Positions 28,578 to 52,971 of a stretch of DNA of 64,000 nucleotides are shown here, piece by piece. Both the position numbers and the translations under genes were made by a program. The DNA is from Octopus vulgaris (taxonomy: Eukaryota): assembly GCA_951406725.2 (NCBI GenBank), contig OX597832.1:55924001-55988000 (forward strand), read 5' to 3'. The notes beneath the pieces were generated by a model, which saw only the letters and a list, made by a program, of their open reading frames with translations, was not told where the DNA came from and did not search any database. The first letter of the stretch is position 1. Every line of letters begins with the position of its first letter.

Positions 28578-28638
28578 GATAACTGAAGAGATGCCGGCGT
28601 GGGTTTCCGTCCCGACATCCGAAACTCGGAGTTTTATC
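28578..28638 (+). ncRNA. Type I hammerhead ribozyme motif (family P3)
   Basis: GAUAA CUGAAGA GAUG-CCGG..CCGA-CAUC C GAA ACUC G GAGU U UUAUC. Stem I is a perfect 5 bp, stem III is near-palindromic, and the triplet is GUU. There is one extra C before GAAA. Confidence 0.72.
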
Positions 28639-28774
28639 ATGGCTACTGAATAATTGTCACATATTGCATTTACAGATAAATTCCTCTATTTACATAATAT
28701 CGAGGTCTCTTTCATTCTTTTGTTGTCTTACCATTTCTATCAATACATACATATATACATATACATATATATAT

Positions 28775-28915
28775 ATAGGGAGAGTTTACGAAAAAAACAA
28801 AAGACGAAGACAGGTGGAGTACAAAACAAACAGATGTATTAGTATAACGCTCAGGAATAGGAAAAATCTTTTACGTTTCGAGCCCACGCTCTCCTACAGA
28901 AAGAGACACAGAAAA
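28775..28915 (-). mobile_element. PLE-like repeat P2 with a variant minimal hammerhead (28867-28904)
   Basis: Minus strand: UCUUU CUGUAGG A GAGC GUGG GCUC GAA ACGU A AAAGA. Confidence 0.62.
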
Positions 28916-29013
28916 AAACAAGGAAAGAAACAAGGAGAGAAAAAAAGGAGAGAGAAAAAGGACAGAAAAAAACGGAGAGAAAAAAGGAGAGAAAAAAAGG
29001 ATATATATATACG

Positions 29014-30283: not shown

Positions 30284-30342
<59 letters not shown>

Positions 30343-30345
<3 letters not shown>

Positions 30346-30560
30346 CTGTAAATGTAATATATAACAATTATTCGGTAGCCATGATAAAACTCCGTGTTTC
30401 GGATGTCGGGCGGATATCCACGCTGCCATCTCTTTCGTTATCATGGCTACCGAATAATTGTCACATATTGCATTTACAGATAAATTCCTCTATTTACATA
30501 ATAGCGAGATCTCTTCCATTCTTTTGTTGTCTTACCATTTCTATCAGTATATTTATATTG
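30343..30560. mobile_element. Family P3 fold-back copy: 45-bp inverted arms (30343-30387 / 30438-30482) enclosing a mutated hammerhead
   Basis: The minus strand of 30383-30442 is homologous to 28578-28638, with the core changed to CGAAAGA. 30438-30545 matches 28634-28741. Confidence 0.75.
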
Positions 30561-33399: not shown

Positions 33400-33729
33400 C
33401 ATACACACACAAACGGGTTTGTATGATTGTGTATAAAAGAATATATTACTCAGAGGAATTGCAACTCTGTTTTTTAGGTTTTATTTATATTCTTATAATA
33501 TTAATATAGGATATAGAATATAGAATATATAGAAAGAAGAAATGAAATGAAGTATTTATTGTCTTATTGAAATGAAATGAAGTATTGATTGTCTTATTGA
33601 ACAAATGAAATATTGAAAATTAAATATTAAATGTCTATTCTCATTGACCTAGTATACATTCTTGCATTTAAGCATTCATCAAGTTCAGATTGTGACAGGA
33701 ACGCTTCGACAGCTATATATATATATAGC

Positions 33730-33890
33730 TGAAATTTACAGGAAAACAGAAGACGAAGATGGGTGTATAAACAACAAACAGGTGTATTAGTTTAACACTC
33801 AGGAAGGTGGGAAGGTCTTTTACGTTTCGAGCCTACGCTCTTCAACAGAAAGGAACACGATGAAATAAACAGAGAGAGAGAGAATGAAAA
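33730..33890 (-). mobile_element. PLE-like repeat P2 with a minimal hammerhead variant (33817-33852)
   Basis: Minus strand: CUUU CUGUUGA A GAGC GUAG GCUC GAA ACGU A AAAG. All helices are intact, and position 6 is U instead of A. Confidence 0.68.
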
Positions 33891-34171
33891 AAAAAACTTT
33901 TGGAGTTACGTACGGATATATACAAATGAGTAACACTGCACTTCGGAAGTATTTGGAAAGTATCTTTATATGAAGTATATGTCTGCGCAAACAGCGGATT
34001 TATTCACTAAGCTGGATTGTGACATCTGCAGACACTGCAAGAATATCAGGTGGGAAAAAGTGGTGTAGGGTTTGATACTCAACTAATACTGTTTGAGTGA
34101 GTAAATATGTTTGGCCTAACTAGACGCCTCCATTTAAGTACCAAATTCAACTGAATCTAAATTACCGGTAT

Positions 34172-34365
34172 TCGCCATGATAGATCGCTAGCCATTACAC
34201 ATTCTTTAATTTTCCTCATTGTTTCTTTCTGTGTTCCTTTCTGTGGAAGAGCGCAGGCTCGAAACGTTAAAGACTTTTTCACTTCCCGAGCCTTATACTA
34301 ATACATCTGTTTGTTATCTACACCACCTGTCTTCGTCTTTTGTTTTTTTTGTGAATTCTCCCTAC
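34172..34365 (+). mobile_element. PLE-like repeat P2 with a minimal hammerhead variant (34237-34272)
   Basis: CUUU CUGUGGA A GAGC GCAG GCUC GAA ACGU U AAAG. Confidence 0.68.
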
Positions 34366-34373
34366 ATATATAT

Positions 34374-34678
34374 ATATTATATAGAGGGCACTATTATTCA
34401 TAGGTACCGCACGCTAGGATGGACTTTTGCAGTCAAAACTACTAAAATAAACAACTTGTACCGAATGCAAAACTTCAAAGCAAGTCGGTAAAATTTGTTT
34501 ATTTTAGTAGTTTTGACTGCAAAAGTCCCTCCTAGCGTGCGGTACCTATGAATAATAGTACCCTCTATATAATATAAATAAATATTTTCAAAGTGGAAAA
34601 ATTTACAGATTTTTTCCTCTTACGAGGTTTTTCACGCTAACTACTGATAATTTCTTATAAAGATTTTATCCTTAATTT

Positions 34679-48297: not shown

Positions 48298-49738
48298 ATG
48301 GAAGTGACAAAACAGCATATTTGGCATATTTTGCTTTATGAGTTTTAAGAATGGCAACAACGCAAAGGAAAATGCGATGAATAATAATAATGCAATGTAG
48401 GGGAATCGGTCAATAAGCGTAAGTCAGTGTCAATGGTGGTTCCAGAAATCCCGCGATGGAAATCACAACCTAGGCGGCGAGCTGGCAGAATCGTTAGCAC
48501 GCCGGGCGAAATGCGTAGCCGTATTTCGTCTGCCGTTACGTTCTGAGTTCAAATTCCGCCGAGGTCGACTTTGCCTTTCATCCTTTCGGGGTCGATAAAT
48601 TAAGTACCAGTTACGCACTGGGGTCGATGTAATCGACTTAATCCGTTTGTCTGTCCTTGTTTGTCCTCCCTGTGTTTAGCCCCTTGTGGGTTGTAAAGAA
48701 ATAGGAGTTTCATCTGCTGTTACGTTCTGAGTTCAAATTCCGCCGAGGTCGACTTTGCCTTTCATCCTTTCGGGGTCGATAGATTAAGTACCAGTTACGC
48801 ACTCGGGTTGATGTAATCGACTTAATCCGTTTGTCTGTCCTTGTTTGTCCCTTCTGTGTTTAGCCCCTTGTGGGCAATAAAGAAATAGGAAACTAAAACC
48901 TAGAAGACGAGCCTCGTCCTGGAAGATCAGTAGAGCTCACCGAGGACGTCTTGCAAACCCTGGTGGAACAAAATCCCATCGTAATTCTTGAAAAACTAGC
49001 AGAGAAGCTTGGATTCATTCAACCAATCATCAACACCAGCGTGCCATCGGAAAAGCCAGTAAATTGGGTCAATGGCTTCCTCACAAACTTTCCGAGTCAA
49101 ATCGCGCGCAGAGAGTGTATGTGTGTTTTTCTTTGCTGCCATGTCTCACCAATGAACCTATTCTGGACCGAATAGCGACTGGTAACGAGAAATGAGTTAT
49201 CTATAAAAAGGTCAAGCGCCGAAGACAGTGGGGTAGGGAAAGGAGAAACACGGGCACCCCAGGCTAAAGAAAGTCTTCACCCACGTAAGGTGTTATCTTT
49301 TTTGATGGGATATCAAAGGTTTAGTCCACTTTGAACTTTTAAACCCAAACCAAACCATAACAAAGGAAATCTACTGCGAGCAGCTTGAGTGGCTTAAGTC
49401 AGCACGAGAAGAAAAATGACGAAAGGTGTTCTTCCATCAGGATAATTGCTCGGCTACATACAGCGAGGATGACATTCCAAAGGCTGGAGCAGTTTGAATG
49501 GGAAACGATGCCCCACCCACCATATTCACCGGACATTGCCCCATTTGATTATCATTTATTCAGCAGTCTTCAAAATCATTTGGACGGAAAAAATATGAAT
49601 TCTGTAAACGAGGTCAGAACAGTACTGGAGGAGTATTTTTCGTCGCAGTTAAGTGAATTTTGGAAGAGGGACCTTACAAGTCTACCAGATAGATGGATGA
49701 GCATTGCAGAAAATGAAGGAGAGTATATTTTAGATTAA
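48298..49738 (+). pseudogene. Mariner transposase pseudogene (stops, frameshifts, SINE insertion)
   Basis: Fragments MEVTKQHIWHILLYEF, LEDEPRPGR, GQWLPHKL (WVPHEL motif), TGNEK* (TGDEKW), FHQDN, HPPYSPDIAPFDYHLF (YSPDLAPxD) and EGEYILD*. Confidence 0.93.
48473..48887 (+). mobile_element. SINE family A dimer nested in the mariner transposase
   Basis: 15-bp TSD GGAAATCACAACCTA (48458-48472) / GGAAACTAAAACCTA (48888-48902), 12 of 15 identical. The transposase sequence resumes after it. Confidence 0.92.
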
Positions 49739-52714: not shown

Positions 52715-52768
<54 letters not shown>

Positions 52769-52769
<1 letters not shown>

Positions 52770-52971
52770 TATATAGAGGGTACTATTATTCATAGGTACC
52801 GCACACTAGGAGGGACTCTTGCAGTCAAAACTACTAAAATAAACAAATTGTACCGAATGCAAAACTTCAAAGCAAGTCATTTAAAAACAGAATTTAGTTA
52901 CATATCACCTGTGATTTCGCAATCAATGCAGAATATGCATTCTATGCTCTTCAGTGCAACGAACTCAAGAC

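Follow-up and report, generated by a model that had tools for sequence, protein, structure and literature searches.

The repeat family P2, found in the 64-kb stretch of DNA analysed here (the window), carries a minimal type I hammerhead motif in which the normally invariant A6 of the core is U; judged from its sequence, this is a genuine variant of a familiar type of motif, with the core change shared by the whole family. U6 is fixed, the neighbouring N7 is free, the motif is otherwise unvaried outside CpG sites, and U6 occurs in all lineage-specific subfamilies. The explanation that we favour, at a probability of about 0.45, is that P2 is a strongly slowed hammerhead, which may be retained as a cis signal in a non-autonomous derivative of a Penelope-like element (PLE); cleavage would then have been lost, the fold would be recognised by a protein, and the repeat would be mobilised by a PLE enzyme. 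P2 probably comprises 10^4-10^5 copies and was amplified in at least two host lineages. Motif positions are numbered by the standard hammerhead scheme.

The P2 Repeat and Its Copies

P2 is a dispersed repeat of ~150-190 bp, which terminates in a TA or CA microsatellite. With the copy at 34200-34375 as query, blastn and nhmmer located five related places in the window, numbered here by their C3: 34241(+), 33848(-), 28899(-), 12607(+), and 12792(+). The corresponding elements are:

34190..34375, + strand, P2 element nearest the family majority; TA tract at its end, 5' limit approximate
33715..33872, - strand, P2 element, ~83% identical to the 34241 copy; TA tract at its end
28765..28924, - strand, P2 element; motif 28868-28903, core CUGUAGG, U6 at 28896, G at position 9
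12613..12720, + strand, P2 copy, 5'-truncated at ~A9, sharing 95% identity with the 34241 copy over the aligned part; CA tract at its end
12786..13064, + strand, sister-family copy, microsatellite-interrupted; motif 12788-12823, 3' end 13011-13064

All five end in TA or CA tracts, ~95 bases beyond the motif. In contigs from public sequencing runs, loose ends at 34348-34360 run into TA and the 5' ends are variable; loose ends before 34219-34220 resemble the window sequence back to ~34190. For a tRNA-related head with Pol III boxes, as in tRNA-derived SINEs, Rfam gave no tRNA match at any copy, over sequence that stops short of the full 5' end. P2-type patterns occurred neither in viral contigs nor in the prokaryote genomes searched (0 in each).

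The window is microsatellite-rich animal DNA of ~36% GC and holds four P2 copies in 64 kb. This density, together with a crude estimate of ~44,000-123,000 copies (summed depth divided by single-contig depth, where depth is not the same as copy number), suggests that P2 is present in tens of thousands of copies. The window copies are dispersed, only 12607 and 12792 being in tandem, and head-to-tail joints are few, occurring in two contigs of run X7 (see below) among those listed. The copies at 33715-33872(-) and 34190-34375(+) are divergently oriented and flank a 330-bp spacer, which has no Pfam match and is single-copy within the window; because they are only 83% identical, they are probably separate insertions.

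The truncated copy is joined to another repeat via a 5-nt duplication (12609-12613) of sequence from stem II and its loop. A preliminary description of this DNA had read C at position 6 here (12603). The sequence up to 12608, however, belongs to that other, short repeat (12506-12608(+) and 11260-11359(-), 93% identical), to whose end the truncated copy is joined; as P2 begins there only at ~A9, the supposed C6 is junction sequence and no position-6 allele. The relative at 12788, in turn, had been called canonical. CUGAAGA and a compensated stem II are indeed present, but G12 is replaced by C (12812) and U16.1 by G (12818), so that it is not canonical. This copy is 77-81% identical to the P2 copies over the motif region and is best read as belonging to a decayed sister family. 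The readings as a C6 copy and as a "canonical" relative were mistaken and are given no weight here.

Architecture of the Motif

The reference points are the following:

34237..34272, + strand, minimal type I hammerhead motif; stem I 34237-40/34269-72, stem II 34249-60
34237 motif, + strand, core sites: C3 34241, U6 34244, N7 34245, extra A 34248, G12 34261
34237 motif, + strand, 3' side: palindrome ACGU 34264-67, H17 (U) 34268, predicted cut at the 34268/34269 boundary
33817..33852, - strand, hammerhead motif; core CUGUUGA, U6 at 33845, H17 = A

In three window copies the 5' core is intact, reading CUGUGGA, CUGUUGA, or CUGUAGG, each with U6; these copies have in common stem I CUUU/AAAG, stem II GAGC-N4-GCUC, GAAA, and the ACGU palindrome. 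The folds and the U6 that had been ascribed to 34241(+), 33848(-), and 28899(-) are thereby borne out, although the core of 28899(-) deviates also at G9. The 3' core GAAA, A15.1-U16.1, and H17 are present in all four P2 copies of the window; in each of the four the palindrome stands in place of stem III, and a dimer fold can be written and scored. Stem II opens with G10.1-C11.1, and an extra A lies between A9 and G10.1 in all copies, an extra base at this place being normal for PLE minimal hammerheads (PMC4209133). From the 5' core of the latter, CUGANGA with an invariant A6, P2 departs.

The pattern of stem II followed by GAAACGU occurs four times in the window, compared to a mean of 0.04 in 100 shuffles, none of which reaches four. 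Over the five copies, 39 of 40 stem cells are paired, with one two-sided change; since 98 of 500 shuffles do equally well, the window gives no significant covariation. The fold receives only weak z-scores, from +0.5 to -1.7, and the Rfam hammerhead models had no match at the gathering score in the window and none at E up to 10 in 33700-34400.

Position 6 Across the Family

Contigs of 4 out of 24 public sequencing runs were aligned on window positions 34215-34362 (at least 80% alike; differences shown from 4%): X1 (organism A; 16,141 contigs, with ~80% of the run covered), X4 (organism C; 11,948 contigs), X7 (organism D; 11,452 contigs), and X15 (organism A, guessed to be RNA; 3,099 contigs). 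Labels A and C have alleles in common and may denote the same or close species. At position 6 (34244), no letter other than T reaches 4% in any of the four runs, which cover three organism labels at a summed depth of 0.26-3.2 million in the position-6 bin; such run shares are depth-weighted, contigs drop rare variants, and relatives less than 80% alike (the 12788 type) fall outside the alignment. Rows for T>A appear at 34268 and 34296 only (four runs). Position 7 is G in 55-66%, T in 13-30%, C in 5-16%, and A in 4-12%. U6 is hence the family consensus, as no second letter reaches 4% at position 6 in runs where variants of the neighbouring N7 are readily detected. This supports the earlier proposal that the family amplified with the variant core, and the four public runs do not show the opposite picture of an A6 consensus with sporadic U6 copies. 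The depth ratio of X15 to X4 is 0.07-0.09 on both sides of the predicted cut, which speaks neither for nor against cleavage, X15 being only guessed to be RNA and contigs being unable to show RNA ends.

Probable Constraint on the Motif

Downstream of the motif, alleles differ between lineages: at 34318, G accounts for 40, 37, and 68% in X1, X4, and X15 vs. 0.2% in X7, and at 34339 for 39% in X7 vs. at most 0.3% in the other runs. Because these alleles are lineage-specific and U6 is kept, U6 sources must have continued to be amplified separately in two lineages. Subfamily-level variation affects 0 of 29 constrained motif positions compared to 11 of 73 downstream (one-sided Fisher test, p = 0.02, post hoc), where the constrained set leaves out the CpG rows 34252, 34260, 34261, 34265, and 34266 and a 4.1% row at 34251 (X1 only), and the downstream set leaves out the CpG rows 34288, 34334, and 34335. 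Apart from CpG-type changes, the motif varies at this level only in N7, in H17 (U or A), and in the first base of the loop. Being post hoc and based on linked sites, the test is moderate evidence, and the ~17 covered bases upstream of the motif are also without a listed variant at the 4% level. With the motif otherwise unvaried outside CpG decay and the flanks diverging between lineages, constraint probably outlasted the A6U change.

Comparison With Other Hammerheads

Metagenomes were searched with a pattern of the same motif shape, in which positions 6 and 7 were left free. It matched 114 loci, of which 106 have A at position 6 and the other eight T (4), G (3), or C (1); the hammerhead-shape filter was passed by 45 loci, 43 of which have A6. 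The matches are not independent, because most come from one unrelated animal family, and no P2 look-alike is among the 114. That family, an abundant minimal hammerhead with the core CUGACGA, makes up most of the matches (L001-L114; e.g., L027, L005, and L077), and its contigs are probably host animal DNA. L077 is a sporadic U6 copy of it. Inverted partial copies adjoin the motif in several of its contigs, and the monomer folds as a rod, because the 5' core is complementary to the 3' core over 6 bp.

All 44 representative motifs considered from the supplement of PMC4209133 have A6, which the descriptor used there required, and U3-A8 is the only core variant described in the accessible part of that paper. 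A natural U6 hammerhead family was not found in the accessible literature, which includes parts of PMC6765202, PMC7229834, PMC11014351, PMC11662667, and PMC13725137; Lunse 2017 and Arkhipova 2017 could contain one. The accessible texts yielded A6U in a single passage, which concerns twister, and no printed rate for an A6U hammerhead. The Lunse study is reportedly a large survey of such hammerhead motifs, and Arkhipova is said to have used relaxed cores. In the 2026 Octopus vulgaris repeat annotation (PMC13282606), the words "hammerhead" and "ribozyme" are absent from the main text as far as accessible. With the natural A6C hammerhead of phage Bcep176 (PMC3088659, PMC7151607), P2 shares a pyrimidine in place of the normally invariant A6. 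However, the phage motif is one locus, active in tests and with a preference for Mn2+, whereas P2 has U and is a high-copy animal family.

Possible Relation to PLEs

P2 resembles the minimal hammerheads of metazoan PLEs (PMC4209133) in its short stem I, the extra base between A9 and G10.1, G10.1-C11.1, the GAAA-CG-U-H palindrome that replaces stem III, the common U17, and the U-rich upstream flank, as well as in its mostly solo, dispersed copies and opposite-strand pairs 100-700 bp apart; it differs from them in having U at position 6 (Cervera and De la Pena 2014, PMC4209133). Its layout is PLE-like, too: the hammerhead lies close to a 3' end that is fixed, the 5' ends vary, and insertion is into microsatellites. 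Microsatellite targeting and short non-autonomous partners are known for PLE clades, and Naiad PLEs proliferate without canonical hammerheads (PMC8557442). Similar to Naiad and Chlamys PLEs and their non-autonomous partners, P2 lies in (TA)n or (CA)n at very high copy number; those PLEs are without the canonical motif, some keeping core words, whereas P2 has the full fold with one core change (PMC8557442).

Non-LTR retrozymes, which have been proposed to be non-autonomous PLE derivatives, are likewise short, non-coding, hammerhead-bearing repeats that occur as solo monomers (PMC7229834; bioRxiv 10.64898/2026.07.22.740005). They are defined, however, by tandem arrays with an intact type I hammerhead in every repeat, and P2 differs from this in being dispersed and TA-tailed, with 5' truncation and a changed core. 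Pfam had 0 matches in 12 frames beside two P2 copies, with no remnant of a PLE ORF, i.e., of a reverse transcriptase or GIY-YIG domain, and neither domain was present among 12 ORFs chosen from the metagenome loci. Since no PLE ORF lies beside the copies tested, we infer the PLE origin of P2 from its architecture.

Proposed Mechanism and Alternatives

According to the favoured explanation, P2 would be a short non-autonomous derivative of a PLE 3' end (pseudo-LTR). A PLE reverse transcriptase-endonuclease would copy it in trans, priming at a TA/CA microsatellite and reading through the hammerhead to variable 5' ends. A founder source copy would have acquired A6U, which, to judge from published position-6 mutants, should sharply cut self-cleavage in a motif that is slow and dimer-dependent to begin with. 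Uncut templates would remain copyable, and the hammerhead-like fold would still be retained as a cis signal or as a structure needed for mobilisation.

Position 6 belongs to the CUGA turn, in which pairwise mutagenesis gave low activity for every single and double mutant other than the C3/G8 swap (PMC9901934). Natural A6C cleaves at <0.1 per min (PMC3088659); the natural A6C phage ribozyme reaches 0.3 per min with Mn2+, compared to 0.004-0.05 per min with Mg2+ (PMC7151607). Metazoan minimal hammerheads are slow and cleave weakly, even as dimers (PMC4209133). By analogy, published mutagenesis tilts towards little cleavage for U6. G8 and G12, which are the acid and base of the hammerhead (PMC12192606), are both kept in P2, and the retention of C3-G8, G12, A15.1-U16.1, and H17 counts against the favoured explanation.

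In folding models, U6 lifts the predicted pairing probability of G5-C15.2 from at most 0.10 (A6) to 0.47-0.98 and would occupy the dimer palindrome by letting it pair with U4-G5-U6, which offers minor support only. The N7-weighted energy gap shifts by only ~0.5 kcal/mol between U6 and A6, and the 6-bp rod is also formed by two of the three A6 metagenome motifs that were folded. For these reasons, the rod fold is not special to U6, and the idea of U6 as a "thermodynamic off-switch" was rejected despite the shift in pairing. Two further candidates were discarded: a shifted register (UUGAAGA core, N7 = U), which on inspection leaves a 2-bp stem II and a bulge before G12 and applies to only 13-30% of the family, and A-to-I editing as origin or repair of U6, which is ruled out by established chemistry and by the presence of the change in the DNA.

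U6 could also mark a working hammerhead, slowed and cleaving as a dimer, whose slow cleavage was itself selected. Cleavage would suffice to free or circularise some RNA and be too little to destroy the templates, and a protein or an ion other than Mg2+ might perhaps assist the dimer. All other catalytic positions are kept and, apart from a loop base, only N7 and H17 (U or A) vary; the pattern of free and fixed positions is exactly the catalytic consensus, which a working ribozyme fits equally well. Moreover, the natural A6C phage ribozyme is active (PMC7151607), and X7 contigs contain a few head-to-tail joints. We nonetheless consider such selected slow cleavage somewhat unlikely: mutagenesis found no rescue in the CUGA turn (PMC9901934), the A6C cases are tertiary-stabilised, metazoan minimal hammerheads are slow even with A6 (PMC4209133), and the window copies are dispersed apart from the tandem of 12607 and 12792.

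That A6U killed the ribozyme in a founder, which was then amplified for unrelated reasons as a neutral relic, seems more doubtful still. The apparent conservation of the motif would then reflect a young family with few source genes, and CpG decay of only 4-5% in X4 and X7 does suggest a young family; in addition, the constraint test, with a post hoc p of about 0.02, is of modest strength, and the ~17 covered upstream bases are equally without a listed variant. Evidence against a neutral relic comes from the four bases found at N7 at the subfamily level, where the flanking U6 and G8 are unvaried, and from the 11 downstream sites that vary, several by lineage. Finally, a SINE-like repeat hairpin that resembles a hammerhead by chance would account for the missing Rfam hammerhead match, the weak fold z-scores, and the lack of a PLE ORF nearby, but is very improbable, given that the published consensus (PMC4209133) is matched in 10 of 11 core bases and in the base inserted after A9, as well as by G10.1-C11.1, by the palindrome, and by flanks that are U-rich and AU-rich, that CUGAAGA goes together with a compensated stem II in the sister copy, and that near-identical motifs carry A6 in 106 of 114 metagenome matches.

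Implications

The role of the hammerhead in PLEs is stated to be unclear in PMC8557442 and PMC4209133, and an abundant U6-fixed family bears on whether such elements can spread without cleavage or catalysis tolerates a broader consensus than assumed. If P2 were a natural separation-of-function hammerhead, with a cleavage-dead U6 and the rest of the fold selected, the PLE hammerhead fold would have a non-catalytic job, for instance recognition by the reverse transcriptase-endonuclease; alternatively, CUGUNGA may be a new active core missed by standard descriptors. We put forward either reading only tentatively. Because descriptors that require CUGANGA miss P2, such genomes may contain more ribozymes than have been counted.

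Neighbouring Repeats

A second TA-tailed repeat with a hammerhead-like motif lies at 28578-28755(+), with relatives at 30320-30460(-) and 30438-30558(+). Its motif has a canonical CUGAAGA, a 5-bp stem I, a stem II with a long insert, and a genuine stem III; the core of the 30460 copy is decayed. The 28578-28755(+) repeat adjoins the P2 copy 28899(-) tail to tail within one TA tract. Within the TA tail of the 34241 copy sits a MITE-like element (34372-34576) with inverted arms of ~80 bp, 90% self-complementary, a second copy of which is found at 52764-52878. An Rfam tRNA match of 39 bits with a long variable arm (10903-10997(-)) could be a gene or a SINE head. The common repeats of the window presumably resemble octopus SINEs, and a 125-aa frame at 49361-49738(+) resembles what we take to be the C-terminal end of a mariner-type transposase.
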